DNA of 64,000 nucleotides from Candidatus Giovannonibacteria bacterium RIFCSPHIGHO2_12_FULL_44_22 (GTDB lineage Bacteria; Patescibacteriota; Minisyncoccia; UBA11713; 2-01-FULL-45-33). Position 1 is the first letter of the stretch, and the number at the start of each line of letters is the position of its first letter. The stretch lies in contig MFHU01000003.1 in the NCBI GenBank assembly GCA_001778695.1, positions 75,112-139,111 of the forward strand, given 5' to 3'. Under the pieces are notes generated by a model that did no database searches, was not told where the DNA came from, and was given only the letters and a program-made list of their open reading frames with translations. Shown piece after piece: positions 25,650 to 62,377 of the stretch. The translations under genes were made by a program, and so were the position numbers.

Positions 25650-25651
25650 AC

Positions 25652-25689
25652 TATACTCATTTTTGTACGATCGTGAATAATTGAGTATA
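25652..25689. promoter_or_regulatory. 38-bp palindromic operator, copy 2; 31 of 38 positions identical to copy 1
   Basis: TATACTCATTTTTGTACGATCGTGAATAATTGAGTATA. It lies directly after the regulator stop and upstream of the surface-protein gene. Confidence 0.6.
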
Positions 25690-25719
25690 GTGGGTTTTTG
25701 TTGATTGTAAAATTTTGCC

Positions 25720-30484: not shown

Positions 30485-31509
30485 TTCTTACTCAAAAAGT
30501 TGACAAGAATGATGATAATCTAGGTTTTTTTCATCGCTGGTTGGAGAAATTTGCCGAGAAAACGGGCAAGATTTTTGTCATCGCGAATTTTATCGGCGAG
30601 TATAATTTGCCGGCCAATGTTCAGGTTTTTTCTTTGGGTAAAGAAAAAAGATTGGGCAGAGTTAGGCGCTATATAAACTTTTATAAATATCTTTTTAAAA
30701 CTTTGCCCAAATCGGATGCCGTATTTGTGCATATGATTCCGGCTTGGGTGGTTTTAGTTTGGCCAGTGGCCGCGATTTATAGAAAAAAAATATATTTGTG
30801 GTATACGCACAAATCACTAACTTTTTCGCTTCGGCTTGCCGAAAAATTGGTTGCTAAAATTTTCACGGCTTCTCTTGAAAGCTGCCGTTTAAATTCTAAA
30901 AAAATCGCGGTTGTTGGCCATGGGATTGATACGGAACATTTTAAGCCCAAAGATTTTCCGCATGACCAGGGCGCGTTTAGACTTCTTAGTGTTGGCCGGG
31001 TAACTCCTTCCAAAGATTATGAATTTTTGTTGGAAGCCATGGAGGCTTTAAAAATCCGCGGCTATAGCGCGGTTTTAGATGTTGTGGGTGCTCCGATAAC
31101 CTCCGCAGATTTTAGCTATAAAAATAAGCTTGATGATTTAATTAAAAAGAGAGGATTGCAAAACATTGTCAATTTTATTGGACCAAAAATTTACGCAGAA
31201 ATTCCAGATGTTTATAACGGCCACGATTTATTGCTTCACGCAAGCGAAACCGGAAGCCTTGATAAAGCTGTTTTAGAAGCAATGGCTTGCGGTTTGCCGC
31301 CAGTAACAACCAACGAAGCTTTTAAGAATATTCTGGCGGCCCTGCCCGTCCGGCAGGCGGGGCGGTATGTGTCGCGCAAGAATAGCAGTGAAATGACAGG
31401 AAAAATTATCCAACTAAAAAACACTGGGAAAAATTTATCTTTGCGCGAAATAATAATACAAAACCATAACTTAAATAATTTGATTAAGAAAATTATGGAA
31501 AATTTATGA
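30466..31509 (+). CDS. Glycosyltransferase family 4
   Basis: HASETGSLDKAVLEAMACGLPPVTT. Confidence 0.6.
   Translation: MPKNILILTQKVDKNDDNLGFFHRWLEKFAEKTGKIFVIANFIGEYNLPANVQVFSLGKEKRLGRVRRYINFYKYLFKTLPKSDAVFVHMIPAWVVLVWPVAAIYRKKIYLWYTHKSLTFSLRLAEKLVAKIFTASLESCRLNSKKIAVVGHGIDTEHFKPKDFPHDQGAFRLLSVGRVTPSKDYEFLLEAMEALKIRGYSAVLDVVGAPITSADFSYKNKLDDLIKKRGLQNIVNFIGPKIYAEIPDVYNGHDLLLHASETGSLDKAVLEAMACGLPPVTTNEAFKNILAALPVRQAGRYVSRKNSSEMTGKIIQLKNTGKNLSLREIIIQNHNLNNLIKKIMENL
31341..31364 (+). repeat. Short hairpin CCTGCC-CGTCC-GGCAGG followed by CGGGG; a family member of the gyrB insert
   Basis: Shares CCTGCCCGT and GCAGGCGGGG with 16217-16253. Confidence 0.5.
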
Positions 31510-32339
31510 GAGAAAAAATTCCATGCTCTATTGGTGTTCTCACTTTAAACTCGGGCGGCACTTTGAGGCGCTGTTTGGATTCGCTTAAAGATTTTACAGA
31601 AATCATAATTTGCGACGGCAATAGCACTGACAACACTTTGGAAATCGCCAGGGAGTATGGCGCCAAAATCGTAAAACAGTACGATTCCGATGAGCCGAAT
31701 TTGCGTTGTGAAAAAGACAAGGCCAATGTCCGGATGCGCAATATGCGAGCGGCTTCTTACGACTGGTATTTTTTTATGGATTCGGACGATATACTCCCCG
31801 ATGGAATTACGGAAGAGATTAGAAGCATAGTAACGAATCCTGGTCCGCAATTTTTAGTTTATCGTATGCCCGGGCGTATTTTTATTGATGGACGAGAGAT
31901 AAAACACGAAGCTAGTTACCCTTCGTATCAGACTAGATTGATAAACCGAAAAATCAATCCTTATTTCAAAGGCCGCGTGCATGACCGTCTGGAATTTGAC
32001 CGCAAAAAATATAAAGTAGGGGAATTAAAAAATTATTATGACTTTCATTGGTCAAAAGACCGGGTCCAAAATTATTGGAAGTATCTTAAAATGTATTCCG
32101 GTTGGGAGGCGGAAGTCGCTAACGGCGGGCCGTGGCTGGCATTTTTTTACTGGTGTGTTTATAAACGACTCCGCATCATCGCCGGATATCTCTATAGAAT
32201 TCCTTTAATGTATTTGCGGTACGGATTCCGGGATTCCATGCCTTTAAAACTTCAGCTTTTAACCTTGTGGTATCATTTTTATCTTTTATATTTATTTACC
32301 AAGAAGCAAATTTTTTATGTGCGCAATAAATGGGTTTAA
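31506..32339 (+). CDS. Glycosyltransferase family 2
   Basis: GT-A fold: IGVLTLNSGGTL...ICDGNSTDNT and the DxD motif FMDSDD. Confidence 0.6.
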   Translation: MREKIPCSIGVLTLNSGGTLRRCLDSLKDFTEIIICDGNSTDNTLEIAREYGAKIVKQYDSDEPNLRCEKDKANVRMRNMRAASYDWYFFMDSDDILPDGITEEIRSIVTNPGPQFLVYRMPGRIFIDGREIKHEASYPSYQTRLINRKINPYFKGRVHDRLEFDRKKYKVGELKNYYDFHWSKDRVQNYWKYLKMYSGWEAEVANGGPWLAFFYWCVYKRLRIIAGYLYRIPLMYLRYGFRDSMPLKLQLLTLWYHFYLLYLFTKKQIFYVRNKWV

Positions 32340-34137
32340 CTTCAAAGACGAGGGGCTGATCTTGAAAATGAATCAGGCAACGCGCCACAGGGGCCCAGAC
32401 GGCACAGGAATTTTTTTGGGCGAAAAAATTTCTTTAGGGCATAATCGCTTAAGCATAATTGACTTGAGCGATGCCGCAAATCAGCCTATGTTTTCCTCCG
32501 ACGGCAATTTAGTGATTAGTTTTAACGGAGAAATTTATAATTTCCGCGAGATTAAAAGAGAATTTGAAGATTTTTATAAATTTAAAACCAATAGCGACAC
32601 GGAAGTTATTTTAGCCGCTTATCAAAAATGGGGCGCCGAATTCGTTAAAAAATTAAACGGGATTTTTGCTTTTGTAATTTGGGACAAAACTAAAGAAGAA
32701 TTATTTTTAGCGAGAGACCACATAGGCTTGAAGCCTTTATATTATTTTTTGGATGGCGATAGATTTATTTTTTCTTCTGAAATTAAAGCTATTTTGGAGC
32801 ATGATGTGCCTCGGAAGCTCAACCGCGAAGCATTTAATATTTATTTAAGAACGCTTTACGCGCCGGCGCCGCTCACTATGTTTGAAGGAATTTATAAATT
32901 CCCGCAGGCGCATTATGGCGTTTTCTCCGCCAAAGGCGGATCTGCCTCGGGCGGAAAAAATGGCGAATTTAAACTCACAAAATATTGGGAAATTCCAGTA
33001 ATAAAATATTTTGATACTCCTTTTAAAATTTTGGCGAAAAATTTGCGCGGTGAAATTTTAAAAAGCGTGGAGCGGCAATTAATTTCCGACCGGCCGATCG
33101 GGCTTTACCTTTCCGGCGGGATTGATTCCAGCGCGGTGCTAGATGCTATGCATGAATTTAGAAACAATATTGATACTTTTTCAGTGGGCTTTGAATTGCC
33201 TAATAAAGATGACGAAAATAAATTCAACCAGGATTTTTATTTGGCCAAGCGCACGGCGGCGCTCTATGGGACCAGGCACCATGAAATTTTATTGGAAGAA
33301 AAAGAAGTGCTGAATCTTTGGGAAAAAGTTTTTTTACAGCTTGACGAGCCGATTGCCAACTCCACTGCCATCCCGATGATGAAATTAGCCGAATTCACCA
33401 AGGGCCATGGGGTAGATGTGGTTTTGGGAGGCGACGGCGGGGACGAACTTTTCGGAGGGTACGAAAGATACAGATTGAGCAGAATTATTGGCTATTTCCC
33501 AAAAATATTGTCATTTTTGCCAAAGGGAGTGGACATATTTTCCCGTTTTATGTTTCAAAAAGATCCTGTTTTAAATGAAGTTTTGCAAAAAAAGTTTTTT
33601 GACAGAGAAGTTTCAAGATCGTTTTTTGAAGAACGCTATTTTAAAGAAAATCCGTTCAAAACTTTTGAGGAACTTTTTATGGACGTGGACAGGCGGACGT
33701 GGCTTGTTGATGAGTCGCTAATGCGGACGGATAAAATGTCTATGTTCTCGGCGGTTGAGGCGAGGGCGCCTCTTTTGGACAAAAATCTTATTGAATTCGC
33801 GGCGAAAATTCCCAGAAAATACAAAGTCAGCGCATTCAACACAAAAATTATTTTAAAAGAGGCGTTTATGGGACGGATTCCGGATTTTTTATTATCCCAG
33901 CCGAAACGTGGCTGGTTTTCTCCGGCGGCCAAATGGTTGAGGAACCCCCAAATTCATGCTACCGCTAAAAATATTCTCTCCAAAAATTATTACGCCGAAA
34001 CCGCGCCTATATTTAATTGGGAAAATGTTGATAAAATTCTAAAAGACCATATTGAAGGCAGAAGATACAACCTCACAATTTTGTGGGCGTTGATTAATTT
34101 TCAAGTTTGGGCGAAACTCTATAAAGTTAAATTATGA
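32317..34137 (+). CDS. asnB: Asparagine synthetase (glutamine-hydrolysing)
   Basis: N-terminal MCAING with catalytic Cys2. PP-loop SGGIDSS. 606 aa. Confidence 0.85.
   Translation: MCAINGFNFKDEGLILKMNQATRHRGPDGTGIFLGEKISLGHNRLSIIDLSDAANQPMFSSDGNLVISFNGEIYNFREIKREFEDFYKFKTNSDTEVILAAYQKWGAEFVKKLNGIFAFVIWDKTKEELFLARDHIGLKPLYYFLDGDRFIFSSEIKAILEHDVPRKLNREAFNIYLRTLYAPAPLTMFEGIYKFPQAHYGVFSAKGGSASGGKNGEFKLTKYWEIPVIKYFDTPFKILAKNLRGEILKSVERQLISDRPIGLYLSGGIDSSAVLDAMHEFRNNIDTFSVGFELPNKDDENKFNQDFYLAKRTAALYGTRHHEILLEEKEVLNLWEKVFLQLDEPIANSTAIPMMKLAEFTKGHGVDVVLGGDGGDELFGGYERYRLSRIIGYFPKILSFLPKGVDIFSRFMFQKDPVLNEVLQKKFFDREVSRSFFEERYFKENPFKTFEELFMDVDRRTWLVDESLMRTDKMSMFSAVEARAPLLDKNLIEFAAKIPRKYKVSAFNTKIILKEAFMGRIPDFLLSQPKRGWFSPAAKWLRNPQIHATAKNILSKNYYAETAPIFNWENVDKILKDHIEGRRYNLTILWALINFQVWAKLYKVKL
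32926..32956 (+). repeat. GC-rich palindromic mini-insert in asnB encoding (S)AKGGSASGG(K)
   Basis: TCCGCC...GGCGGA arms. Paralogous to the gatA element at 7889-7918. Confidence 0.6.
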
Positions 34138-35246
34138 AAAAGCTTGTTTATATTGCCAACGCCCGCATTCCCACTGAAAAAGCGCACGGGATCCAGATTA
34201 TGAAAATGTGCGAGGCATTCTCTGCTCAAGTGGTTGATGTTGAGTTGGTATTGCCTAGGCGCTTAAATCGCATTAAAGAAAATCCGTTTGATTATTACGG
34301 CGTTAAAAAGAATTTTAAAATCACCAAACTGCCCACTATAGATTTTATTACTTTAGGCCTAGGACAGATAGGATTTTTTCTCGAGACTTTTATATTTCTA
34401 ATTGCGTCTAGAATCTATTTATTTTTTAGAAGCTACGATATTTTATATACGCGCGAAGAGTGGGCTGGACTGTTTTTTAGAGATTTTGGCGTAGAAATTC
34501 ATTCTTTGCCGGCTAGACCGAGTTTTTTACATAAAAAAACCTGGCGGAAAGCCAAAGCAATTTTTACGCTTACCAGCTTTTTAAAAAATGAGCTTATAAA
34601 ATTCGGCGTTTCGGAAAATAAAATTCTAATCTTGCCGGATGCGGTGGATTTAGCTAAATTTGACATAAAAATTTCCAAAGAGGAGGCAAGAGAAAAACTA
34701 AACTTACCGCAGGACAAAAAAATTATTTTATACATCGGAAGTTTTTATCTTTACGATTGGAAGGGAACCGATGTATTATTGGAAGCTGCAAAGAATTTTG
34801 GAGAAGATTTTTTGTTTTTGCTTGTCGGAGGTTCAGAAAAGGAAATCTCAAATCTCAAATCGCAAGTCACAAATCTCAAAAATATTAAGTTTATTGGCCA
34901 TAAGCCATATGCCGAAATTCCAAATTATTTAAAATCCGCCGATATTTTAGTCTTGCCGAATAAAGCTGGGCACAAAATGTCGGAGAAACATACTTCGCCA
35001 CTCAAACTTTTTGAATACATGGCTTCAGGGCGGCCTATTGTGGCATCGGATTTGCTGTCTCTTCGTGAAATTCTCACGGAACAGGAGGCAATATTTTTCA
35101 AACCGGACGACCCATTAGATTTAGCGCTCAAGATTAAAGAAATTTTAGTCAACCAAAGTTTGGCCGAGCAAATATCTCAAAACGCCCGTGAAAAAGTTCA
35201 AAACTACACCTGGCAAAACCGCGCCCATCGCGCATTGATTTTTTGA
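34134..35246 (+). CDS. Glycosyltransferase family 4
   Basis: EKHTSPLKLFEYMASGRPIVASD. Confidence 0.6.
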   Translation: MKKLVYIANARIPTEKAHGIQIMKMCEAFSAQVVDVELVLPRRLNRIKENPFDYYGVKKNFKITKLPTIDFITLGLGQIGFFLETFIFLIASRIYLFFRSYDILYTREEWAGLFFRDFGVEIHSLPARPSFLHKKTWRKAKAIFTLTSFLKNELIKFGVSENKILILPDAVDLAKFDIKISKEEAREKLNLPQDKKIILYIGSFYLYDWKGTDVLLEAAKNFGEDFLFLLVGGSEKEISNLKSQVTNLKNIKFIGHKPYAEIPNYLKSADILVLPNKAGHKMSEKHTSPLKLFEYMASGRPIVASDLLSLREILTEQEAIFFKPDDPLDLALKIKEILVNQSLAEQISQNAREKVQNYTWQNRAHRALIF

Positions 35247-37030: not shown

Positions 37031-37771
37031 CTAAAACACGCTAAAAATATGTTTTATACGCTGGAGAAATCCCCAAAAGACAGGGTTCATATAAGAAAAA
37101 AATTGTTTATGGTAGCGGAGAGTGGATTCTTTCGGACTTTTTTCGTAGTGTATAGGTATTTCTAAAAAAGTGGCTCCACGGAAATAAGCTTTGATAGGAA
37201 GCTCCACATGGAACCCAAAGCCGTTGTTTTCAATTTTAATATCTGTAACTTTCTTTAGGCGGTAGAGCTTGAAGCCCGTAGTTAAATCATTTACTGGGAG
37301 GCCAGTTAGAACCCTTGCAAATACGTTATAAAAACGGCTCAAAAAACGCCGTTGCGAACTTAAAGTAGCGCTTCCGCCTTTCACGAATCTGGAGCCAATG
37401 ATAATATCAGCTTTCTCGCGAGAGTCAAAGAGTTGCCTGATATCCTCAGGATTATGGGAAAGATCGCAGTCCATGATTAGAAAAAAATTTCCAGCAGCAT
37501 TTTTAATGCCTTCTTTTAGAGAACTCCCAAGGTCTTTGGAAGAGCGGTTGTAGCGCTGGATTACTTTAAGGCGCGGTTCGGTTTTGGCAAGTGCCGCGGC
37601 GATATCTCCAGTACGGTCAGCGCTGTGATTATTCAAAAAAATCAATTCACCGTCTATGTCATATTTTTTAAAAATCTCCAGCACTTGCCTTAGAATGGCC
37701 TCAACGCGAGCTTCCTCGTTTAAAGCAGAGATGATCACGGAAAGAACAGGATGATGGTTAAATGAGTTCAT
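37031..37771 (-). CDS. GT2 polyprenyl-phosphate glycosyltransferase (DPM1-like)
   Basis: LSVIISALNEE, NNHSADRTG and DCDLSHNPED. Soluble, 246 aa. Confidence 0.6.
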   Translation of the reverse strand: MNSFNHHPVLSVIISALNEEARVEAILRQVLEIFKKYDIDGELIFLNNHSADRTGDIAAALAKTEPRLKVIQRYNRSSKDLGSSLKEGIKNAAGNFFLIMDCDLSHNPEDIRQLFDSREKADIIIGSRFVKGGSATLSSQRRFLSRFYNVFARVLTGLPVNDLTTGFKLYRLKKVTDIKIENNGFGFHVELPIKAYFRGATFLEIPIHYEKSPKESTLRYHKQFFSYMNPVFWGFLQRIKHIFSVF

Positions 37772-39436
37772 TTATGGAGTAGAGTTTAGTTGGTATATTT
37801 CTATTCTAGGCCCTAAACTCTCTAATTTAAATAGACCCAAGGGATTACCAAAATTTCCGTCTCTTAGGTCATATTCTTTCTGCATGTCGCCGAAAGATTT
37901 TACTAAAACAGAATTTTTTGTAAGCACTTTAAGTTGATTGGTCCTTGCATTGTCGCCCGGCGGGTAAGTCGAATCCAAAAAAAGGTATTTGTAGTTATTA
38001 ATTCGCGCGTAATTCATAATATTTTTATAAAAATCATCATTGTTTACCGAGTAGAGATTTAAGACATGAAAATTTGTATAGCCGTGCGGGCTTTCTGCAA
38101 AATTCATTTCAGCATAATCTATTTGTCTCAAGGAAGCGGGGTCAAGAGCTTGCTGTTCTGCGATTGCTTTTTTGGTTGAAGCGAATCTTGTCATGTCGGC
38201 ATAAACCATGATTTTAGTATTTGTTTGCAAATTGGATTCCGCCCATTTTCTAGCTTGTATGCGCGAGTCATTTTTTAGCGCTAGCCAATCAAGCCGTAGA
38301 GAGACCGCGAGCTGCGTCATTAATAAAAGCAAAATAAAACCCGCGACAAAAGTTTTGCGCTGGATGAGCTGTGTTGCTGAATAAAGCCCGTAACCAGCCA
38401 AGATCGCTACTATTGGGAAAAGATAAATTGTAAAGCGCTGTTCATAATGAAATACGAGATAAAATACGCTGACGTAGGAAAAGATGTAAATTAATGCCGT
38501 CCAGAAAAAATTTCTAGCTTTGATGTAACCAAAAATAAATCCCACGGCAGCAAATATCGTTAAAATGGGTTCTGAATATAACTGCGGCTTAAAGAATTGG
38601 CTTGCGTTAACTAAAAATCCATAAATGGATTTGCCTTCTTTTATGGAATTGCCGCTGGCTAAGTGGAAGCCATAAGGATAGACGACGATAGATATAGCGG
38701 CAAGAACAAGGAAAGTGAGGAGGCATATATAAAGAATTTTTTCTTTAAACGCATCAAAGATAGAATATTTTTCGTGGCAAAGATACCAATAGAGCATAAA
38801 AAGCATTGAGAATGCGGCAATCGGGCTTATGCCAAACGCAACTCCGGATATCACTGTGCCGAATAGGTATCTTTTTTTAAAAGACATGTCTGGTTGAGTT
38901 ATAAAAAACATCACCAAGGCAAAAAGAAAAACAGCCGGCAACCAATCCCTAGCAACAAAAGAAAGGTAAATGTGCAGGGCGCTGAAAGCCAGAAGGGTTG
39001 CAGAGAGTAAGGCGAGAAGTTCTGTTTTAAAGATATTTTTAGAGATTTTATAAACAAGCCATACAGTGAGAGTTCCCAGTATTACATTTATAATCCTGGC
39101 TATAATAAAAAAATACGAGAGATCGCTTACTATGTAATTTTTAAATTCCAAGAGGGAGCCGCTAAAAAATAAATATTTTAGGCTAAGCAATAAGCTAAAA
39201 GGAATTAAATAAATATACGACAAGTATGGCGGGAAATATAATGTAGGTTGAAATTCGTTTTGGTGTAAAACCGGCAGCACCGTTTTAAGCTCCAACATCT
39301 TTAGGGCAGCAGCGACAAATGGCGGCTCATCGCCGATTAGCCAGAGAGGAAGGCCGTAACTTACGCCCGCGATTCTTATCAGAAATGCCAAAGCCAGAAT
39401 AAAAATCAGCCATTTTTGGGGCGAAATTTTAAACAT
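37772..39436 (-). CDS. Polytopic membrane glycosyltransferase, GT-C fold (PMT/ArnT-like)
   Basis: First-loop DE motif (LIGDEPPF), more than 10 TM segments and a soluble C-terminal domain. Confidence 0.5.
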   Translation of the reverse strand: MFKISPQKWLIFILALAFLIRIAGVSYGLPLWLIGDEPPFVAAALKMLELKTVLPVLHQNEFQPTLYFPPYLSYIYLIPFSLLLSLKYLFFSGSLLEFKNYIVSDLSYFFIIARIINVILGTLTVWLVYKISKNIFKTELLALLSATLLAFSALHIYLSFVARDWLPAVFLFALVMFFITQPDMSFKKRYLFGTVISGVAFGISPIAAFSMLFMLYWYLCHEKYSIFDAFKEKILYICLLTFLVLAAISIVVYPYGFHLASGNSIKEGKSIYGFLVNASQFFKPQLYSEPILTIFAAVGFIFGYIKARNFFWTALIYIFSYVSVFYLVFHYEQRFTIYLFPIVAILAGYGLYSATQLIQRKTFVAGFILLLLMTQLAVSLRLDWLALKNDSRIQARKWAESNLQTNTKIMVYADMTRFASTKKAIAEQQALDPASLRQIDYAEMNFAESPHGYTNFHVLNLYSVNNDDFYKNIMNYARINNYKYLFLDSTYPPGDNARTNQLKVLTKNSVLVKSFGDMQKEYDLRDGNFGNPLGLFKLESLGPRIEIYQLNSTP

Positions 39437-39479
39437 AGTTAAATTTACTATATATAAAATTTAGTTTATAATCCATAGC

Positions 39480-40184
39480 ATGCCTAAACTGTCTATTATC
39501 ATTCCAGCTTACAACGAAAAGAATACTGTTGCTGAAATAATAAGAAGAGTGAAAAAGGTTGATCTTGGTGATGTAGAAAAAGAAATTATTATAGTTGATG
39601 ACGGTTCTACGGATGGAACCAGAGAAATTTTGGAGAATTTAGGAAAAACCGGAAAATACAAAATTATTTATCAAGAAAAAAATCAAGGCAAAGGCGCTGC
39701 AATTCGGCGCGGCTTTAAAGAAGTCACCGGAGATTTTGTGATTATCCAGGACGCCGACCTGGAGTACGATCCTAATGAATATAAAATCTTGCTTCAGCCG
39801 CTTTTGGACAAAAACGCCGATGTTGTCTACGGCTCCAGATTTATGGGGGCTTCGGCTCACCGCGTTTTGTTTTTTTGGCATTACGTTGGCAACAAAATTC
39901 TTACTGCGCTTTCCAATATTTTGACAGACCTCAATTTAACCGACATGGAGACCGGGTATAAGGCTTTCCGCCGTGAAGCGCTTTTTAAAATTTTGCCTAA
40001 GCTCAAAAGCGACCGTTTCGGGATTGAGCCGGAGCTCACCGCCAGAGTCGCGCGCGCGGGATTCCGTGTTTACGAAGTCGGGATTTCTTACAATGGCCGC
40101 ACTTACGCAGAAGGCAAAAAAATCAGCTGGCGTGACGGTCTCTCCGCCATCTGGGCGATTATCAGATTTAATTTATTTGATTGA
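39480..40184 (+). CDS. GT2 polyprenyl-phosphate glycosyltransferase (DPM1-like)
   Basis: [23 protein letters not shown] and QDADLEYDP. Confidence 0.65.
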
Positions 40185-41425
40185 TTTTGGACTGGCTTAA
40201 AACTCATAAAACCGAGATTTGGATTTTTCTTCTGGCGTTCGGGGTGCGTTTTTTATATGCGATTTTTGTGCAAATCAAATTCGGGTCGCAAGGGTTTTTG
40301 GCTTACTCGGACGCATTTTCTTTTTATTTGCCTTTGGCAAAAAATTTGGTTGAGAACCATATTTTCAGCATGAGCTCCGTTCCGCCGTATGTATCGGACG
40401 CCTACCGCACGCCGCTTTACCCGCTTTTTTGGGCCGTTTTTTTGTGGTTTAAGCTGCCATTTTTTGTAGTTATTTTTGCGCAGAATATTTTGGCTGGATT
40501 TATGTCCGTTTTGATTTACAGAATCGGTCTGATGATGTTTAACTCAAAAAATATTAGTTTATTCGCGGCCGTTTTAATGAGTGTTGAGCCGATGTCTATT
40601 TACTGGAATAATCTTTTAATGTCTGATTATTTATTCGCCTTTTTATTTATTTTTGCTTTTTATATATTTGTTTCTGGGCATTATTATTTGTTCGCTTTAT
40701 TTTTCGGCTTAGCAACGCTTACCCGCTCAATCGGCATGTATATTTTCCCGCTGTTTTTAGTTACGATGTTGTGGAGAAAAATAGGTTGGAGGAAGATTAT
40801 TCTAACCGCTTTGATATTTTTAGCCATGCTTTTCCCATGGATGCTAAGAAATAAAATTGTTTTTGATACATGGCAATTATCCTCCGCTTCCTGGTATAAT
40901 CTTTACGGCGTTGTTACGCAGATATTCGCGGATAAAGAAGGGTTTATATTGCCGCGCCCGCAATCTTTGCCCTACGATCTAGCAAGCGTGCCATTTTATA
41001 AACAACATTTTTTTGAAATTTTCAAAGAAAAGCCACTGTCCTATGTTAAATTTTACATATCAGTTGTTTCGCGCTCTTTCTTTAAAAATCCTTACATGTA
41101 TCTTTCAGAATATGTTATAAAACCCAAATTTCCCCAATTTTTTTACGGATTTACGCTGCTACTTATCAATTTCGCGGTCGTTGTCGGCGGATTATTTTTA
41201 GTAGCAATTTATACTTTTGCTTTTTTGGGTTGGTTATCCAAAGATGCGAGACTGTGGTTTTCTTTAATATTTTTTATTATCTTCTTCAATGCTTTTTCTT
41301 TGGGCGCCCTTGGTTTAGGCGCAGATATGAGCCGCTATATGTTGCCTTTAACGCCGTTTACGTTCCTTTTCGCTGGCGCCGGATTTAATTTAATAGTTAA
41401 TAAGTATTCGTCATGGCCGATATAG
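40181..41425 (+). CDS. Polytopic membrane protein, possible GT-C glycosyltransferase
   Basis: Many TM segments. Start overlaps the upstream GT2 stop. Confidence 0.4.
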
Positions 41426-42147
41426 AATTATCAATTGTTTTACCTGTTTTTAACGGGGCCGATATTTTAGAATGGTCTTTGAAATGGTTACAAAGTTGGA
41501 TTATAGAAAAACCTTATAAAGTTGAGCTTATAGTCGTAAACGACGGCAGTACAGACGCAACAAAAAACATCTCGGAAAATTTTCTAGGAACGCTTGACTA
41601 TTATCAATTTATCAATTTTCCCGAAAATAGAGGCAAGGGATTTGCCACAAAAGCTGGGATGCGAGCCGCCAGTGGAAAGTTTGTTGTTTTTACCGATGCC
41701 GACCTTTCTTACGGCGTGGATATTTTTGATGCCATGCATCAATGTATGAGAACAGATAAAAATATCCAATTATTGTACGGCTCTCGCAGACATCCACAAT
41801 CCAAGGGTTATGCGGGATATACCAAATTAAGGAGGTTCTCCAGTTTGCTTTTTTCCAATTTAGTGTGCTTTATAGTTCTGCCGGGAGTAAAGGACACTCA
41901 ATGCGGCGTAAAAATGTTCCGAAAAGAATTTGCCGCGCTGGCGGCTCAAAAACTAACTATTAATCATTTCGCCTTTGATATTGAATTGTTTGTAATTGCA
42001 AAAGCTCATAATTTAATGTTCCAAGATTTTCCGGTCGCGCTTAGTCACAGGGAAGAAAGTAGCGTCAGGCTTATAACAGACGCTTTGTTTATGATAAAAG
42101 ATATTTGTTTAATGAAAATAAATATTTGGTTAGGGCGTTATAAATAA
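41413..42147 (+). CDS. GT2 polyprenyl-phosphate glycosyltransferase (DPM1-like)
   Basis: LSIVLPVFNGAD, VVNDGSTDAT and TDADLSY. Confidence 0.65.
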   Translation: MADIELSIVLPVFNGADILEWSLKWLQSWIIEKPYKVELIVVNDGSTDATKNISENFLGTLDYYQFINFPENRGKGFATKAGMRAASGKFVVFTDADLSYGVDIFDAMHQCMRTDKNIQLLYGSRRHPQSKGYAGYTKLRRFSSLLFSNLVCFIVLPGVKDTQCGVKMFRKEFAALAAQKLTINHFAFDIELFVIAKAHNLMFQDFPVALSHREESSVRLITDALFMIKDICLMKINIWLGRYK

Positions 42148-42148
42148 T

Positions 42149-43543
42149 ATGGGAAATAGTTATAAATTTATTCTCTTCGGTCTTACAATAATTTTCATCA
42201 GTTTGATATTTTATGGTTTTCCGGACAGCCCTGCGCCCTGGTTTGATGAAGGCATTAATTTGGGCATAGTAAAATCTTGGCTCAAGCACGGTGTTTACAG
42301 TTTGGAAATCGGCCCCAGCGAATTTATCAAAGAACGATCTTTATTGATTACGACGAATTATCCTCTACTTTTGTGGATCGCGCTTTCTTTTAAATTTTTT
42401 GGCATCGGTTTGTGGCAGGCCAAAATTGTAATGTTTGGGTTTTTATTTATTTTTGCATGCCTATTTTACCTTCTGGCCAAAAAATATTACGGTGCGAATA
42501 GCGCCCTTATGACACTGGCGCTTTTGATTACCTTTTTACCACTTTACGGGAATGGCAAAAGCGCTTTGGGAGAAATCCCGGGGCTTACGTATTTTCTGGG
42601 CGGGCTTTTATTTTGGGAAAGCGAGAAGAAATGGCGAATTTTCACAGCCGGATTACTTTTTGGTTTGGCGGCAGCTACCAAGCCTCTTTATTTGCTTTTA
42701 ATTGTGAGCGTTGCGATAGGCGAGCTTTGGATTTTCGCCGGAGATAGAAAATCCAATTATAAACGCTGGGTGCTACTTGCAAGCGGTTTTGCCCCGCCTT
42801 TGATTTTATGGCTTTACACTCTTTTGCCGGGTCAGCTTTCTTTTGATTATTTAATTAAAACCTGGCAACTCTACAGCAATCCGTACAATATTGAAAATAC
42901 CGCTTTTGTTAATTTCTTGAGATTTTTTAAAGAATCAACTCCGGTTCATTTCGGTTTACTTTTTGGCGCTTTTCTTTTTTCAAAAATTTTCGTAAAACAT
43001 TATTCGCTTAAAAAATTTGAAGTTATTTTGCTTGCATTTATTGTTTTAAATTTACTCTTTTATTTAAAAACCGCGGGATGGTACCGCTATTTTTTCCCTG
43101 CGCACATTTTGCTTTTTATGCTGTTTCCACAGGCGCTTGCCGGCATTATGGAGAAATTTGGTGTTTTGAATTGGATTAAAACTCGCGGCAGCATAATTTT
43201 AATCGCGATTTTGGCTGTGGTTCAAGCAATCGTTCTCGTTGTAAATATTCAAACCAGTTTATACTTAGACAGGACTCCGCGCCAATTTGCCGAAGCTGTC
43301 AACAAAATCGTTCCGCAAGGCCAAGGCATTTTAGTTATTGATTTTCCTGAAATTGTTTTTTTATTAAATCGCGATGATGTTTGGCATTATTTACGCGCTA
43401 ATCCTCATATTACTTTCGGGCGCGATTTGTTTGCGGCGAATCAATATCCTGCTTATGTCATCAGCGATGTTTTGCCGCCCGGCAATAAATATGATATAAA
43501 AATTGATGGCGGTAAATACGTTTTATATGAAAGAAAGAAATAA
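42149..43543 (+). CDS. Polytopic membrane glycosyltransferase, GT-C fold (ArnT/PMT-like)
   Basis: First-loop WFDEG motif and many TM segments. Confidence 0.5.
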   Translation: MGNSYKFILFGLTIIFISLIFYGFPDSPAPWFDEGINLGIVKSWLKHGVYSLEIGPSEFIKERSLLITTNYPLLLWIALSFKFFGIGLWQAKIVMFGFLFIFACLFYLLAKKYYGANSALMTLALLITFLPLYGNGKSALGEIPGLTYFLGGLLFWESEKKWRIFTAGLLFGLAAATKPLYLLLIVSVAIGELWIFAGDRKSNYKRWVLLASGFAPPLILWLYTLLPGQLSFDYLIKTWQLYSNPYNIENTAFVNFLRFFKESTPVHFGLLFGAFLFSKIFVKHYSLKKFEVILLAFIVLNLLFYLKTAGWYRYFFPAHILLFMLFPQALAGIMEKFGVLNWIKTRGSIILIAILAVVQAIVLVVNIQTSLYLDRTPRQFAEAVNKIVPQGQGILVIDFPEIVFLLNRDDVWHYLRANPHITFGRDLFAANQYPAYVISDVLPPGNKYDIKIDGGKYVLYERKK

Positions 43544-43544
43544 A

Positions 43545-44174
43545 ATGCAAAAATTTAAGGATTTTATCACCCTGCCTTTGCGCGCGGTTGCTCTTTTTGA
43601 GACAGGCAAGTGGGGCCTTTCTTCCACGCAGGCGGAGAGATTTGAGTATGCCGCCAAAGAGGTTTTGGGCTGTTGCTTGGATATAGGCTGTGGCAAATAT
43701 AATCTATTTATCAATAAATATTTGAACGGCAATGGCAAAGGCGTAGACATTTTCCCTTACGAAGGCCTGGTAGAAAAAGATATTATGCCTAATTTGGAAA
43801 CCTTTCCTTTTCCGGACCAATCTTTTGACTCCGCTACTTTTATTGCGAGCCTCAACCATATTCCTGAAGAGCTTCGGGATAAAGAACTTGCCGAGTCTTA
43901 CCGCTGTTTGAAAGTCAACAGCAATGTTATTGTTACTATGCCTTGCGCTTTTGCGGGAATATTAATTCATATAATCGTTGCTGTCTACGACAGTATTTTC
44001 GGCACGAATTATGACGTGGATTCTGTAAGAGGCATGCATCAAAATGAAGATTATTATCTGCCTGATAAGGAAATTATAGAAAGGCTTCAGCGCGCCGGAT
44101 TTAAAAATATATCTAAAAAATATTTTTGGACCCAATGGGGGATGAATCACGCGTTTATTGGTTGGAAAAAATAA
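43545..44174 (+). CDS. Class I SAM-dependent methyltransferase
   Basis: Motif I LDIGCGKYN. Start chosen at MQKFKDF, directly after the upstream stop. Confidence 0.55.
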   Translation: MQKFKDFITLPLRAVALFETGKWGLSSTQAERFEYAAKEVLGCCLDIGCGKYNLFINKYLNGNGKGVDIFPYEGLVEKDIMPNLETFPFPDQSFDSATFIASLNHIPEELRDKELAESYRCLKVNSNVIVTMPCAFAGILIHIIVAVYDSIFGTNYDVDSVRGMHQNEDYYLPDKEIIERLQRAGFKNISKKYFWTQWGMNHAFIGWKK

Positions 44175-44177
44175 AAA

Positions 44178-45611
44178 ATGTTAGATGCTGCAAAATTGGC
44201 TATAGCTATCAAATCCACTATTTTTTTGTCTTTTTTTGTCTTACTTTTCATTTATTTTTACTATCGTTATTTTTGGGATAATCCAGGGGCCAGGGATCTT
44301 TTTAAAATATTTATACCCTCTTTTGGCTTTATAGTTTTAGTAAAATTTTTAATCGGCCTTTTCTACAAGGACTATATTCAAGAACTTTTCTTTTTTTACG
44401 CTATCCCGTCACCAAAGGCCATGAGCTTGATTTGGCCGCTAATTGCCTTATTAACTTTTTTTGGTTTTTTATATTATAGAAGAAAAATTGAAGCACTCTC
44501 TAAGAATAAATTTTTACTTATTCTATTTTTAATATTTTTTGCCCTTGCTTTAGGCGTTGCTGGCATTCGCGAGGGCGCAAAGAGCATTGCCGACCCCTTT
44601 ACGCGGACTTTTTGGGAATACAGCGGCAATATGGGATTGGTGCGCACTGTTAAAGATTTTTTACATAATTATATTTCACTTATTCCGCGCTTAGCCGAAC
44701 ACAGCACGACTCACCCGCCGGGATACACTTTGGTTTTATATTTTGTTTATAAATATTTTAAAGCCGGATTTTTTGGCATGTCTTTATGGGTTGTCTTTAT
44801 CGCTGGTCTGACTTTGTGGCCTCTATATTTCTTATGGAGGTATTTTTTAGAAGAGATAGAAGTCAAGCGCGCGTTGGAAATTTTTATATTTGTGCCGAGC
44901 GTCGTGATGATGACCGCGACTTCCATGGAAGGAGTTTTTATGTTTTTGGTTTGGTGCGCAATCGCTTTGGTTTTTATAGGCTGGCAAAAAAATATTTGGC
45001 TGGCAGGATTGGGAGGGCTCGCGGCCGCTATGGCGCTACTTACAAATTTCCTATTTTTGCTTCTTGCCCCGTTTTTTCTTTTTTTGGCTTGGCATGTTAC
45101 ACAAAAAGCAGTCGCAGTTGGCCGTTCCAAGGCATTATTAAGAGTATTTATCTCGTTGGCGTTGTTTTTTCTATTTTTCTTTAGCTTATGGCAATGGTCG
45201 GGATATTCGATTGTAGACAATTTTTTTGCGGCTCTGGCTGCTAATCAAGGCGCTGTTAGGAGTAATTTTGAGTCGATACCCGTGTATTTTCTTTACATCT
45301 TTATGAATATAGTAAACTTTTTAATTTATTTGGGCTTGCCTTTGTTTTTTGTTTTTTTAAAAGGATTGCCGGCGACATTTAAAAACGGCAATCTGCTTTT
45401 TAAAAGCGGATTGTGGATTCTTTTGTTTTTTCTGGCAGTCGGCGTTTTTCAGGCCAATGTGGAGAGATTGTGGTTGTTTATTGTACCGTTTTTTATGGTG
45501 TTTAAAAATAAATTATTTAATGAAGAATGCCGGCCGCTATTTCATCCATTTTTATCTTTGATGCTGTTTCAAATAGTAGTTACGCAGATTTTATTTTATA
45601 CCTTTTTTTGA
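44178..45611 (+). CDS. Polytopic membrane protein (glycan polymerase/GT-C-like?)
   Basis: More than 10 hydrophobic segments. Confidence 0.4.
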   Translation: MLDAAKLAIAIKSTIFLSFFVLLFIYFYYRYFWDNPGARDLFKIFIPSFGFIVLVKFLIGLFYKDYIQELFFFYAIPSPKAMSLIWPLIALLTFFGFLYYRRKIEALSKNKFLLILFLIFFALALGVAGIREGAKSIADPFTRTFWEYSGNMGLVRTVKDFLHNYISLIPRLAEHSTTHPPGYTLVLYFVYKYFKAGFFGMSLWVVFIAGLTLWPLYFLWRYFLEEIEVKRALEIFIFVPSVVMMTATSMEGVFMFLVWCAIALVFIGWQKNIWLAGLGGLAAAMALLTNFLFLLLAPFFLFLAWHVTQKAVAVGRSKALLRVFISLALFFLFFFSLWQWSGYSIVDNFFAALAANQGAVRSNFESIPVYFLYIFMNIVNFLIYLGLPLFFVFLKGLPATFKNGNLLFKSGLWILLFFLAVGVFQANVERLWLFIVPFFMVFKNKLFNEECRPLFHPFLSLMLFQIVVTQILFYTFF

Positions 45612-47722: not shown

Positions 47723-48652
47723 ATGATTTCCGTTGTGATTCCGGTCTATAATGAAGAAAAAAACGTTGCTATTTTGCATGGCAAAATAGCCAAGGCGATG
47801 CGGAAACTTAACGAGCCCTATGAGGTTATCTTTATAGAAGACGGATCTACCGACGATACGCTGAAAAACTTAAAATCCTTAAAAGGAGTAAAAATAATTA
47901 TTTTGGCGATGCCGCTCGGCCAAACTGCGGCGCTGGACGCAGGCATACACGAAACCCAGGGCGATATAATTATCACGATGGATGGCGATTTGCAAAACGA
48001 CCCCGCGGATATTCCGAAGCTGGTTGGAAAGATTCGCGAAGGATATGATGTTGTTTCCGGCTGGCGGCAGGATAGGCACGATTCAGTTGGACGCAGGGCT
48101 TTGTCAAGATTGGCTAATTGGCTTACTGCTAAGATGACCGGCCTTTATCTTCACGATTCCGCCTGCGCGCTTAAGGCTTACAGACGTGAGGTTTTGGTGC
48201 CTATTCATTTGTATGGAGAGATGCATGTGTTTTTGCCGGCGTATCTTTTTATGCGCGGAGCGAAGGTCGCGGAAATTCCGGTTTTGCATCATGCCAGAGA
48301 ATTTGGAACTTCCAAACACTATTTTATGAAGGCCGTAAAAGATATTTTTGATTTGCTTACGATTAAATTCATGTCCAGTTTAACCGGCCGGCCTCTGATA
48401 TTTTTTGGCGGCGCCGGAATCATATCGATTTTATTGGGCATTGCTGTCGGCGCGGTTGCCGCTTATCTTAAATTGGCGGAGCTTCGTAATTTTGGGCAAA
48501 CCCCTTTGCCAATCCTCGCAATTTTTTTTATTCTTTCCGGAATTTTATTTTTTATGGTTGGCTTTTTGGCCGAGCTATTGCTGCGGGTTTATTTTGAGAC
48601 TAATAGAAAAACGCCTTACATTATTAAGGAGCGGATTGAAACTCCCAAATAA
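47723..48652 (+). CDS. GtrB-like GT2 polyprenyl-phosphate glycosyltransferase with two C-terminal TM helices
   Basis: ISVVIPVYNEEKN, IFIEDGSTDDT and DGDLQNDP. C-terminal TM segments. Confidence 0.7.
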   Translation: MISVVIPVYNEEKNVAILHGKIAKAMRKLNEPYEVIFIEDGSTDDTLKNLKSLKGVKIIILAMPLGQTAALDAGIHETQGDIIITMDGDLQNDPADIPKLVGKIREGYDVVSGWRQDRHDSVGRRALSRLANWLTAKMTGLYLHDSACALKAYRREVLVPIHLYGEMHVFLPAYLFMRGAKVAEIPVLHHAREFGTSKHYFMKAVKDIFDLLTIKFMSSLTGRPLIFFGGAGIISILLGIAVGAVAAYLKLAELRNFGQTPLPILAIFFILSGILFFMVGFLAELLLRVYFETNRKTPYIIKERIETPK

Positions 48653-56886: not shown

Positions 56887-56906
56887 AAAAAGGGCGGTTA
56901 GGACGC
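56881..56906 (-). terminator. Terminator hairpin for the radical SAM gene
   Basis: Minus-strand reading AGGGCG-TCCTAAC-CGCCCT followed by TTTTTTT. Confidence 0.5.
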
Positions 56907-60551: not shown

Positions 60552-61658
60552 ATGAAAATAGAATTCATAGATTTGAAAAAACAATATCAGTCGCTTAAAA
60601 ACGAATTGGATGGCGCTATAGCGCGAGTTCTGGATAAGGGGATTTTTGTTTTAGGAGAGGAAGTGGAAAATTTCAGCCGGGAATTCGCGCGGTTTTGCGG
60701 CGCCAAACACTGTATTGCCGTAGCTTCCGGGACGGACGCTCTTTATCTGTCGCTAAAAGCTCTGGGAGTCGGCAAGGGAGATGAGGTAATTACGGCGCCT
60801 AATTCTTTCGTAGCGACAGCAATGGCAATTTCGTTAACCGAGGCAAAACCGGTTTTTATTGATATTAATCCGTTAACTTACAATATTGACGCGGCTAAAA
60901 TTGAAGAAAAAATAACTCCCAAAACAAAAGCCATTATTCCCGTTCATTTATATGGCCAGCCGGCGGATATGGATGAAGTTTTTGAAATTGCCAGCAAATA
61001 TAATCTTAAAATTTTAGAAGACGCATGCCAAGCCCATGGCGCTGAATATAAAAATAAAAAGACAGGAACTTTAGGAGACATCGCGGCTTTTAGTTTCGGC
61101 CCGCCTAAGCCGCTGGGCGCTTACGGCGACGGGGGGGCAGTGGTTACCAATGACGATGCGTTAGCCGAGAAGGTTTCAATTTATAAAAATTACGGCGCGC
61201 CCAAAAGAGATAATTATTTATTGGTTGGCATTAATTCCAGATTGGATGCTTTGCAGGCGGCGATATTGAAGGTTAAATTGAAATATCTTGATAAGTGGAA
61301 CGAGATGCGCAGAAATAACGCTAAACTATACGATAGATACTTGGAGGGTGTAGCGGAGATTACAAGGCCTATGATTTTAAGCCATAATAGATCGGCTTTC
61401 CACTTGTATGTGGTTAGGGCCAGAAATCGGGACAGCTTGGCGGAATATCTCAAAACAAAACAGATTCCCGCGCTTATACATTATCCTCGGCCGATTCATC
61501 TTCAATCTGGCTACGCGGCGCTTGGCTATAAAAAGAGCGATTTTCCTGTCACTGAAAGGGCGGCGGAGGAAATTTTATCGCTGCCAATATTTCCGGAATT
61601 GCTGGAAAACGAAATCGGCTATATCGCCGAGAATATTAAGAGGTTTTACGGGCTATGA
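60552..61658 (+). CDS. DegT/DnrJ/EryC1/StrS-family sugar aminotransferase
   Basis: N-terminal FIDL..QY pattern and an AHLY-type fold. 368 aa with an LPIFPEL-like C-terminus. Confidence 0.65.
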   Translation: MKIEFIDLKKQYQSLKNELDGAIARVLDKGIFVLGEEVENFSREFARFCGAKHCIAVASGTDALYLSLKALGVGKGDEVITAPNSFVATAMAISLTEAKPVFIDINPLTYNIDAAKIEEKITPKTKAIIPVHLYGQPADMDEVFEIASKYNLKILEDACQAHGAEYKNKKTGTLGDIAAFSFGPPKPLGAYGDGGAVVTNDDALAEKVSIYKNYGAPKRDNYLLVGINSRLDALQAAILKVKLKYLDKWNEMRRNNAKLYDRYLEGVAEITRPMILSHNRSAFHLYVVRARNRDSLAEYLKTKQIPALIHYPRPIHLQSGYAALGYKKSDFPVTERAAEEILSLPIFPELLENEIGYIAENIKRFYGL

Positions 61659-62377
61659 TTTCCGTTATAGTGCCGGTTTACAATGAAGAAAAGACGATTG
61701 AAGAACTTCATCGCAAAATAGTTGAAACGCTGGGTCGGCAAAATGACGCCTACGAAATTATTTTTGTAAATGACGGATCTACTGATAAAACCTGTGAATT
61801 AGCCGCTAAATTGCGCCCACTAAAATTAATATCATTTGAAAAAAATTACGGCGAAACCATTGCTTTGGATGCCGGCATCTATGAAGCAAGCGGCGAGATA
61901 ATTGTTTTAATGGATGCGGATCTGCAGAATGACCCCGGAGATACGCGGTTTTTATTGCAAAAAATAAAAGAGGGATGCGATGTGGTTGTTGGCTGGCGTC
62001 TGACGAGAAATGATCCACTGTCTAGAATTTTATTCTCAAAATTCGCTAACGGTCTTGCGCGATTGGTTTTGGGATTAAATATTCACGATTTTGGTTGCGG
62101 CTTAAAAGCGTACAAAAGCGATTACATAAAAGATTTCCGCCTTTGGGGCAGGATGCAGGTTTTTTTGCCGGCCATAGCTAAGGCGAGGGGAGCGAAAATT
62201 TGCGAAGCAGTTGTTTCTCACAGTCCAAGAAAAATCGGTTTTTCAAAAATCAAAATGTCTGACATGATCAAGGGGGGTATAGGTTTATTGGGAATTTTGC
62301 CTTATAGATATTTTTTAAAACCTTACCGGATAGTGAGGCCAAGCTATGTCATCAAAGAAATTAAAGAAAATAAGTAA
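61655..62377 (+). CDS. GT2 polyprenyl-phosphate glycosyltransferase
   Basis: ISVIVPVYNEEKT, FVNDGSTDKT and DADLQNDP. Confidence 0.65.
   Translation: MISVIVPVYNEEKTIEELHRKIVETLGRQNDAYEIIFVNDGSTDKTCELAAKLRPLKLISFEKNYGETIALDAGIYEASGEIIVLMDADLQNDPGDTRFLLQKIKEGCDVVVGWRLTRNDPLSRILFSKFANGLARLVLGLNIHDFGCGLKAYKSDYIKDFRLWGRMQVFLPAIAKARGAKICEAVVSHSPRKIGFSKIKMSDMIKGGIGLLGILPYRYFLKPYRIVRPSYVIKEIKENK

Follow-up and report, generated by a model that had tools for sequence, protein, structure and literature searches.

Glycosylation by way of a lipid carrier follows an established three- or four-component paradigm (PMC11127046, PMC10821137). In the Gtr systems, GtrB is the synthase of undecaprenyl-phosphate glucose (Und-P-Glc), GtrA is the flippase, and GtrC or another Gtr* protein is the GT-C membrane glycosyltransferase; CsbB/GtcA/YfhO and CsdC/CsdD/CflA are the Gram-positive equivalents. 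Here we describe a locus of related type in Candidatus Giovannonibacteria bacterium RIFCSPHIGHO2_12_FULL_44_22 (assembly GCA_001778695.1, contig MFHU01000003.1, positions 75,112 to 139,111). Within this stretch of 64,000 nucleotides, analysed as a whole and hereafter called the window, six genes at 37031-43543 form three pairs, each of a small glycosyltransferase family 2 (GT2) protein and a polytopic membrane protein. The pairs probably constitute three modules, each of two cognate genes, for glycosylation outside the cytoplasm by way of a lipid carrier, and they lie within a surface-glycan cluster conserved among Parcubacteria.

Several other described systems join a synthase of this kind to a GT-C enzyme. 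ArnC and ArnT are the undecaprenyl-phosphate (Und-P) L-Ara4FN synthase and the lipid A Ara4N transferase (GT83), and eukaryotic DPM1 and PMT have their actinobacterial counterparts in Ppm1 and Pmt (GT39). The mycobacterial small GT2 PpgS (Rv3631) makes polyprenyl-phosphate GalNAc for Rv3779, a GT-C that decorates a wall polymer. These synthases differ in their membrane anchors, with two C-terminal transmembrane (TM) helices in GtrB and ArnC, four in the dolichol-phosphate mannose synthase (DPMS) of Pyrococcus furiosus, and none in human-type DPM1 or GacI. In streptococci and lactococci, the GacI/GacJ/GacK/GacL and WpsA/WpsB/WpsG/WpsJ systems employ a short GT2 without TM helices to make a sugar-P-C55, which a GT-C then uses outside the membrane (PMC10821137).

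The present locus is of the multi-module Gtr/ArnC-ArnT/Ppm1-Pmt type of extracytoplasmic glycosylation. Like the Gtr systems, it pairs a polyprenyl-phosphate-sugar GT2 with a GT-C and has a GtrA gene in its cluster, following the same logic of decoration outside the cytoplasm after assembly (PMC11127046). It departs from the textbook three-component arrangement in that its three paired synthases are devoid of the two C-terminal TM helices of GtrB, no flippase gene adjoins the pairs, several modules follow one another in a conserved block, and natural fusions of the two components occur in some relatives. The GT-Cs here belong to the PMT_2 superfamily.

The paired GT2 and GT-C proteins

The six genes, labelled by pair, are the following.

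37031..37771, minus strand: A_GT2, 246 amino acids (aa), GT2, DPM1/DPMS-like, predicted polyprenyl-phosphate sugar synthase
37772..39436, minus strand: A_mem, 554 aa, GT-C of the PMT_2 superfamily, about 10 TM helices
39480..40184, plus strand: B_GT2, 234 aa, GT2, DPMS/AglJ/ArnC-like
40181..41425, plus strand: B_mem, 414 aa, minimal GT-C enzyme without a large soluble domain
41413..42147, plus strand: C_GT2, 244 aa, GT2, GtrB/DPMS-like
42149..43543, plus strand: C_mem, 464 aa, GT-C with an ArnT-like fold and a small C-terminal alpha/beta domain

The coordinates and strands of all six open reading frames (ORFs) were reproduced by an ORF scan. They are packed like translationally coupled operons: the stop of A_mem directly abuts the start of A_GT2, the end of B_GT2 extends 4 bp into B_mem and that of B_mem 13 bp into C_GT2, and a gap of 1 bp separates C_GT2 from C_mem. 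C_mem is 100% identical to a database protein of Candidatus Nealsonbacteria bacterium RIFCSPLOWO2_02_39_8, and the six ORFs are genuine conserved genes.

Each of the small proteins matches the Pfam family Glycos_transf_2 (PF00535; 3.7e-23 for A_GT2, 5.9e-38 for B_GT2 and 2e-18 for C_GT2) and bears a DxD motif, namely D101-C-D103 in A_GT2, D91-A-D93 in B_GT2 and D95-A-D97 in C_GT2. The second aspartate of the latter, D97, is invariant across the family alignment of C_GT2, which also has the conserved motifs DTQCG-K and FAFDIEL. Hydropathy gives no TM segment in A_GT2 or B_GT2, and in C_GT2 a single weak hydrophobic stretch inside the catalytic domain that is no true TM helix. The absence of C-terminal anchor helices from all three is shared with DPM1 and GacI.

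The family to which these proteins are most closely related was judged from the rank and reach of their matches. A_GT2, the most DPMS-like of the three, finds the P. furiosus DPMS (5mlz) as its best PDB match (5e-20, residues 9-232), in an alignment that spans the whole soluble domain, including the region past the catalytic core. DPMS, GtrB or ArnC account for seven of the eight PDB matches, and its top NCBIfam matches are AglJ, dolichol-phosphate (Dol-P) hexose transferase and PgfS. For B_GT2, DPMS 5mlz again ranks first (3e-20) and ArnC second, with about 170 residues aligned as against about 100 for ordinary GT2s; AglJ (2.5e-38), ArnC (9e-21), Dol-P-hexose transferase and PgfS are on top among its NCBIfam matches. 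C_GT2 alone gave unspecific NCBIfam matches, such as PRK10073 and PgaC, and for this reason a family profile was built from 20 sequences of related loci. The best and longest single-domain PDB matches of this profile are GtrB 5ekp (100.7 bits, residues 3-180), DPMS (94.5 bits, residues 3-177) and ArnC (78 bits, residues 4-186), whereas ordinary GT2s stop at or before residue 130; chondroitin synthase tops the table only as the sum of two half-length N-terminal matches. In A_GT2, B_GT2 and C_GT2 alike, similarity continues beyond the nucleotide-binding half into the acceptor half.

By these sequence comparisons, the three proteins class with the polyprenyl-phosphate-sugar synthases DPMS, GtrB, ArnC and AglJ and not with ordinary GT2s, as the first-pass annotation of the window had proposed. 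They would putatively transfer a sugar from a nucleotide sugar to polyprenyl monophosphate, a role to which fusion with, and adjacency to, GT-C genes lend indirect support. The contrary view is that they are ordinary cytoplasmic inverting GT2s with soluble or undecaprenyl-pyrophosphate acceptors, lying beside unrelated transporters or polymerases through mere crowding of the cluster. The unspecific single-sequence matches of C_GT2 would suit this view; the PDB and NCBIfam rankings, and alignments that enter the acceptor half, favour the polyprenyl-phosphate class.

The identity of the membrane proteins bears on the same question. Hydropathy gives 9-10 TM segments each for A_mem, B_mem and C_mem, and A_mem ends in an extracytoplasmic domain of about 170 aa. 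A first-loop Asp-Glu motif had been claimed for all three. In alignments of the three families, the motif holds for A_mem, with D36 and E37 unchanged in all 34 sequences, and for C_mem, where D33 is invariant and E34 present in at least 90% of 30 sequences. It does not hold for B_mem, which has no such pair and in which D44 alone, in the context S-D-A, is invariant.

Assignment by family models required the homologues. Most homologues of A_mem carry PMT_2 (PF13231) and some carry PF02366, which matches none of A_mem, B_mem and C_mem themselves; those of C_mem mostly carry PF13231 and are labelled 'glycosyltransferase family 39'. The PMT_2 family of Pfam also covers ArnT-like and other GT-Cs. 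Searches of PDB sequences with single A_mem, B_mem and C_mem sequences returned no meaningful matches, and those with the family profiles of C_mem and of the protein encoded at 44178 found nothing, so that comparison of folds and of profiles with profiles was needed. The A_mem family profile has yeast Pmt1 (6p25, 4.7e-5) as its sole significant PDB sequence match, and that of B_mem matches GPI mannosyltransferase I (1.6e-4). Confident AlphaFold models were obtained for C_mem (AF2; pLDDT 88.5, pTM 0.90) and B_mem (pLDDT 93.5, pTM 0.92). The best Foldseek match of C_mem is ArnT (5ezm/5f15, E 4e-7, TM-score 0.66), followed by ALG12, STT3, ALG9, AglB, AftA, PglB, DPY19 and Pmt4, and the top 28 matches are all GT-C. 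By hhalign, the three families are mutually homologous at 96-98% probability (98.1% for A_mem against C_mem).

A flippase, Wzy or transporter identity was also considered and rejected, since MFS, MATE, ABC and Wzx structures appear only at a Foldseek probability of 0.13 or less and a TM-score of about 0.1. The membrane proteins are unambiguously GT-C enzymes and not flippases or Wzy polymerases, in agreement with the first-pass annotation and at odds with the notion of ordinary GT2s beside unrelated transporters. From their family and their GT2 partners, they are predicted to use a lipid-phosphate-sugar donor outside the membrane. In the fusion proteins discussed below, the GT2, a basic linker, TM1 and a WFDEG loop follow one another in this order, which would place the GT2 in the cytoplasm and the loop with its acidic residues outside.

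The three modules did not arise by recent tandem duplication, a possibility rejected on the grounds that the GT2s are only 26-31% identical pairwise and single-sequence similarity among the GT-Cs is barely detectable (E 0.005-0.03). They are old paralogues, with GT-Cs related at the profile level only, and because of this divergence they probably differ in the sugars that they add or in the sites on which they act.

Pairing of the genes among relatives

Whether the two components belong together can be judged from their arrangement elsewhere. When species-representative genomes were scanned with the C_mem profile, at least 181 relatives emerged, from which 80 loci were kept and their ORFs classed by HMMs and by BLAST against the window proteins. 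Judged by the titles of their records, the loci derive overwhelmingly from metagenome-assembled genomes (MAGs) of the Candidate Phyla Radiation (CPR)/Patescibacteria, including Giovannoni-, Magasanik-, Zambryski-, Kaiser-, Taylor-, Uhr- and Falkow-bacteria, among others. Many Third Party Annotation (TPA) MAG records (L004, L006-L008, L010, L018, L020 and others) are titled 'uncultured Gammaproteobacteria bacterium' or 'Candidatus Saccharibacteria' despite Parcubacteria-type loci; such titles look like placeholders or mislabels.

The C-type GT-C is fused to an N-terminal GT2 in one polypeptide in 5 of the 80 loci, and in a further 41 a GT2 gene lies within 150 bp of it, on the same strand in 35 of these. 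The protein database holds additional fusions of about 710 aa that join an N-terminal GT2 (PF00535) to a C-type GT-C (PF13231; P0028, P0033-P0045 and others), and GT2s are fused to other GT-C subtypes in four loci (L011, L016, L071 and L073) and in P0203. The genes of the A pair overlap by 4 bp in six orthologous loci and abut directly in a seventh. GT-Cs fused to a SAM-dependent methyltransferase (P0154) or to a HAD phosphatase-like domain (P0274) were also encountered, hinting that cytoplasmic tailoring enzymes can be physically coupled to a GT-C.

GT2 genes make up 28% (43/151) of the immediate neighbours of C_mem homologues as against 11% of all genes in the 80 loci, a background drawn from loci that are already glycan-rich (binomial p 5e-9, with the kinship of the loci ignored). 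The very commonness of GT2 genes in these loci is what the crowding view has in its favour, but the neighbour enrichment lies well above the local background and the gene fusions are multiple and independent. Together with the unambiguous GT-C identity of the membrane proteins, this leaves the view of ordinary GT2s beside unrelated proteins already largely refuted and very improbable. The pairing of GT2 with GT-C exceeds chance, and conserved adjacency and gene fusion support a one-to-one functional coupling of the two.

The divergent genes A_mem and B_GT2 are separated by an AT-rich spacer of 43 bp (39437-39479), within which a TATAAT sequence is located 6-7 nt upstream of the B_GT2 ATG. A divergent spacing of 20-45 bp is kept in six other loci (L001, L002, L012, L013, L021 and L022). 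So short and conserved a spacer implies that the transcripts have very short leaders or none, or that the two divergent promoters overlap.

The surrounding glycan cluster

Further glycosylation genes lie downstream of the three pairs.

43503..44174, plus strand: SAM-dependent methyltransferase-like gene (MT), Pfam Methyltransf_11/23
44178..45611, plus strand: GT-C-like protein of the PMT_2 superfamily, the fourth of its kind here, extended at the N-terminus
47723..48652, plus strand: ArnC/GtrB-type polyprenyl-phosphate GT2, NCBIfam ArnC 6e-58 over its full length, two C-terminal TM helices
55141..56886, plus strand: fifth GT-C-like polytopic protein, 581 aa
59184..60119, plus strand: ArnC/GtrB-type GT2, NCBIfam ArnC 1.1e-50 over its full length, two C-terminal TM helices
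60119..60541, plus strand: GtrA-family protein with four TM helices, candidate lipid-sugar flippase, Pfam GtrA_DPMS_TM 5.6e-16
61655..62377, plus strand: GT2 without TM helices, paralogue of the 47723 GT2, PF00535 4e-31

The GtrB-like GT2s, the GtrA gene and the two additional polytopic proteins listed here had all been pointed out in the first-pass annotation, and each is borne out. The GT2s at 47723 and 59184 possess the pair of C-terminal TM helices that A_GT2, B_GT2 and C_GT2 do not, and the GT2 at 61655 is 47% identical to that at 47723 (blastp 4e-64). The proteins at 44178 and 55141 themselves have no Pfam or NCBIfam match, and both are GT-C-like by their relatives or by profile comparison. 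Of the 387 relatives found for the former, 29 of 40 diverse ones match PMT_2 (best 6e-17); its family aligns by hhalign at 90% with that of A_mem and at 76% with that of C_mem, and H175 and P181-G182 are invariant within an HxxxHPPG motif. The protein at 55141 reaches 90-93% against the A, B and C membrane families, and its homologues directly adjoin fused GT2-C_mem genes in four loci (L007, L008, L018 and L029). In total the cluster has five PMT_2-type GT-Cs, six GT2s of the polyprenyl-phosphate type and one GtrA, with the five GT-Cs and six synthases lying in 27 kb. This GtrA gene, the only one in the window, adjoins the 59184 GT2 and not pairs A to C; among the 80 loci, GtrA-like genes adjoin C-type GT-Cs in four (L045, L064, L072 and L080).

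Gene order around the pairs is well conserved. The block A_GT2-A_mem/B_GT2-B_mem-C_GT2-C_mem-MT-44178 is found with its order unchanged in L001 and L002, and with C_GT2 shifted just downstream in L012, L013, L021 and L022, so that at least six other Parcubacteria share the A/B/C block. MT is syntenic directly downstream of C_mem in L001, L002, L003 and L005 (60-80% identity), and orthologues of the 47723 GT2 (75-90% identity) occur downstream of the block in L001, L002, L005 and L016. The first-pass annotation had thought such an array unusual for a small genome. With the many C-type relatives and the recurrence of the block, that judgement does not stand, and the locus of reiterated modules is instead characteristic of the Parcubacteria/CPR clade.

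The glycan cluster as a whole measures about 38 kb, beginning near 25.1 kb and continuing as far as the window does, and comprises several GT4s, an AsnB-like amidotransferase, nucleotidyltransferases, dehydratases, epimerases, two methyltransferases, a DegT aminotransferase and a nucleotide-sugar dehydrogenase with UDP-glucose 6-dehydrogenases as its best NCBIfam matches. At its head (25107-27294), the gene for a PaaX-like regulator precedes one, at 25720, for a secreted protein of 524 aa with Lamin-tail (LTD) and PKD domains and a C-terminal TM anchor; by its position only, this protein is a possible surface glycoprotein or acceptor. Next, at 27303-29438, a protein of 711 aa consists of two tandem GT4 modules (Glyco_transf_4 plus Glycos_transf_1), both complete. 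Behind it come another two GT4 genes, a GT2 and the AsnB-like amidotransferase, and L012 and L022 have this segment in synteny with the GT-C block.

In L001, L012, L013 and L022, the GT4/AsnB block and the GT-C modules are inherited together, and AsnB-GT4c stands directly upstream of C_mem in L005 and L016. The first-pass annotation had preferred several parallel systems to a single O-antigen-style pathway; given this co-inheritance, the modules may decorate, or even assemble, a single glycan. The association also lends itself to a different scheme, that of Und-P-primed assembly in one integrated pathway instead of parallel decoration systems, as for the lactococcal polysaccharide PSP (WpsA/B-WpsJ) or GacI. 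Here a short GT2 would make a sugar-P-Und primer, cytoplasmic GT4 and GT2 enzymes (27303-35246) would elongate it, and the GT-Cs would be polymerases or ligases that move oligosaccharides. The lactococcal short GT2s without TM helices do make a GlcNAc-P-C55 primer, in company with a GT-C polymerase and ligase (PMC10821137), and the cluster supplies the tandem GT4 protein as well as three other GT4 genes and a GT2, with no initiating phosphoglycosyltransferase. Indeed, neither such an enzyme nor a Wzx, Wzy or ABC exporter was present among the window ORFs scanned, which leaves some room for this scheme. The lack of a Wzx/MOP flippase or ABC exporter in the window counts against it, however, as does the lack of a small GacJ/WpsB-like activator gene adjoining the tightly packed pairs, and the six polyprenyl-phosphate-type GT2s and one-to-one fusions better fit dedicated pairs of monosaccharide donor synthase and transferase. 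Und-P-primed assembly is considered unlikely.

Other portions of the window deserve mention. Within the cluster, the segment 48659-55153 is a run of genes resembling those for an NDP-heptose: an HddA-like kinase (2.4e-42), an SDR, a GFO/IDH/MocA-family oxidoreductase, a heptose-epimerase-like protein, an HddC/ManC-like nucleotidyltransferase, a GmhA-like isomerase, a GmhB-like phosphatase and a transaldolase/FSA-like enzyme, every score being below the equivalog cut-off. The location of this run between the ArnC-type GT2 (47723-48652) and the GT-C-like protein (55141-56886) suggests a module for a lipid-linked donor of the heptose type. Also in the cluster, at 56898-58415 on the minus strand and thus opposite to its surroundings, is a B12-binding radical SAM enzyme that may C-methylate sugars or modify them in another way. 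Upstream of the cluster, at 21107-22639, a 510-aa fusion of MtrA-like, thymidylate-synthase-like and PterinBD/DUF4346 domains adjoins a dCTP deaminase-like gene.

Proposed mechanism and acceptors

The gene structures, families, folds, motifs, adjacencies and fusions described above are observed, whereas the steps of the proposed mechanism, including catalysis, the route of flipping, the sugars and the acceptors, are predictions from homology. Each GT2 without TM helices would be held at the cytoplasmic face of the membrane through C-terminal amphipathic helices, and probably also through its partner GT-C, where it would move one sugar from a nucleotide sugar onto undecaprenyl (polyprenyl) monophosphate. 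The lipid-phosphate sugar would then be flipped by GtrA (60119) or by another route and used outside by the partner GT-C, for which the first-loop Asp or Asp-Glu would be the catalytic or donor-binding acid. The sugar would pass to a surface acceptor, either a wall-associated glycopolymer made by the GT4/AsnB genes or Ser/Thr residues of surface proteins.

Several observations weigh against three such modules. Canonical GtrB and ArnC of bacteria have TM helices, which the paired synthases do not. A_mem and C_mem score 22.5 and 21.8 bits against PMT_2 (PF13231), below its gathering cut-off of 26.1, and B_mem has no Pfam match. No recognisable initiating phosphoglycosyltransferase, Wzx, Wzy or ABC exporter was seen in the window, as discussed above, and its single GtrA-type flippase lies 16 kb from pairs A to C, which leaves flipping for the three modules unexplained. 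The enrichment of GT2 neighbours, moreover, carries no correction for phylogeny.

Comparison with the described systems is instructive as to which of their parts are retained. The Gac and Wps systems offer the precedent for synthases without anchors, but no GacJ/WpsB-like activator or Wzx-type flippase was found in the window; the fusions suggest that the GT2 may have its membrane partner in the GT-C itself. NCBIfam PpgS is matched near full length by B_GT2 (1.8e-16) and C_GT2 (8e-8), yet the scores are far below the equivalog cut-off of 370 bits, and the two are accordingly not PpgS orthologues. With the ArnC/ArnT system, the locus shares the fold of C_mem, the full-length ArnC matches of the 47723 and 59184 GT2s, and the presence of a UDP-sugar dehydrogenase and DegT aminotransferase in the cluster. 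It differs in that no ArnA or ArnD equivalents were identified in the window and the GT2s of pairs A to C do not have the TM helices of ArnC. Lipid A is also an unlikely acceptor, since a published Parcubacterium genome is without genes for lipid A/lipopolysaccharide synthesis (PMC5220378).

The DPM1/PMT and Ppm1/Pmt systems bring protein acceptors into consideration, for pair A likewise joins a DPM1-type synthase without TM helices to a PMT_2-type GT-C with a loop-1 Asp-Glu. At least one module, most plausibly A, might then be dedicated to protein O-glycosylation in the manner of actinobacterial Ppm1/Pmt or streptococcal GtrB/PgfM. Its targets would be Ser/Thr residues of proteins that are secreted or lie at the surface, for example pilins, S-layer proteins or the LTD-PKD protein. 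This proposal, subordinate to the modular reading and compatible with it, concerns the acceptor. It draws on the Pmt1 match of the A_mem profile, the invariant loop-1 pair that PMTs also have, the several A_mem homologues with the PMT domain PF02366 and the DPMS-like character of A_GT2, as well as on the membrane-anchored surface protein at the head of the cluster. Bacterial protein glycosylation by GtrB and a GT-C is known besides (PMC12041528). Nevertheless, PMT_2-type GT-Cs include ArnT and many glycan-modifying enzymes, and the fold and profile matches do not discriminate between acceptors. Pfam finds in none of the membrane proteins the MIR domain that is a feature of eukaryotic PMTs, the PMT_2 scores are sub-threshold and PF02366 is missing from the proteins themselves, and the adjacent or fused organisation of the genes is not the eukaryotic one. 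The LTD-PKD protein, for its part, shows no marked Ser/Thr-rich region, and its tie to the modules is positional only. A role of this kind for module A is possible, though we hold it to be somewhat doubtful.

For three modules of lipid-carrier-dependent glycosylation, the mechanism is an instance of the well-established Gtr/Arn/Ppm-Pmt paradigm; the families are already known, and a specialist would not be surprised by it. A bolder proposal, which we regard as speculative and rather improbable, is that in Parcubacteria the synthase without TM helices and its GT-C form an obligate physical unit, as a non-covalent complex or, in some lineages, as a fusion. The GT-C would stand in for the membrane anchor or activator (DPM3, GacJ or WpsB) and might even mediate or bypass the flipping of the donor, and five such units would build a lineage-specific, combinatorially decorated coat for an episymbiotic lifestyle.

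Abundant glycosyltransferases have been noted in Parcubacteria before, and the structure and formation of the CPR envelope have been called unclear (PMC5220378). We found no paper that describes this GT2/GT-C arrangement in CPR, nor any relevant one on GT-Cs, S-layer glycosylation or mannosyltransferases in CPR/Patescibacteria; for GT2/GT-C fusions, only an engineered WpsB-WpsA fusion was found (PMC10821137). The natural fusions of GT2 and GT-C could help structural work on the passage of the donor from synthase to transferase. A bacterium from a group with small genomes here devotes about 38 kb to surface-glycan genes, five GT-Cs and six lipid-sugar synthases among them, and the locus supplies concrete candidate enzymes for the decoration of the CPR cell surface.

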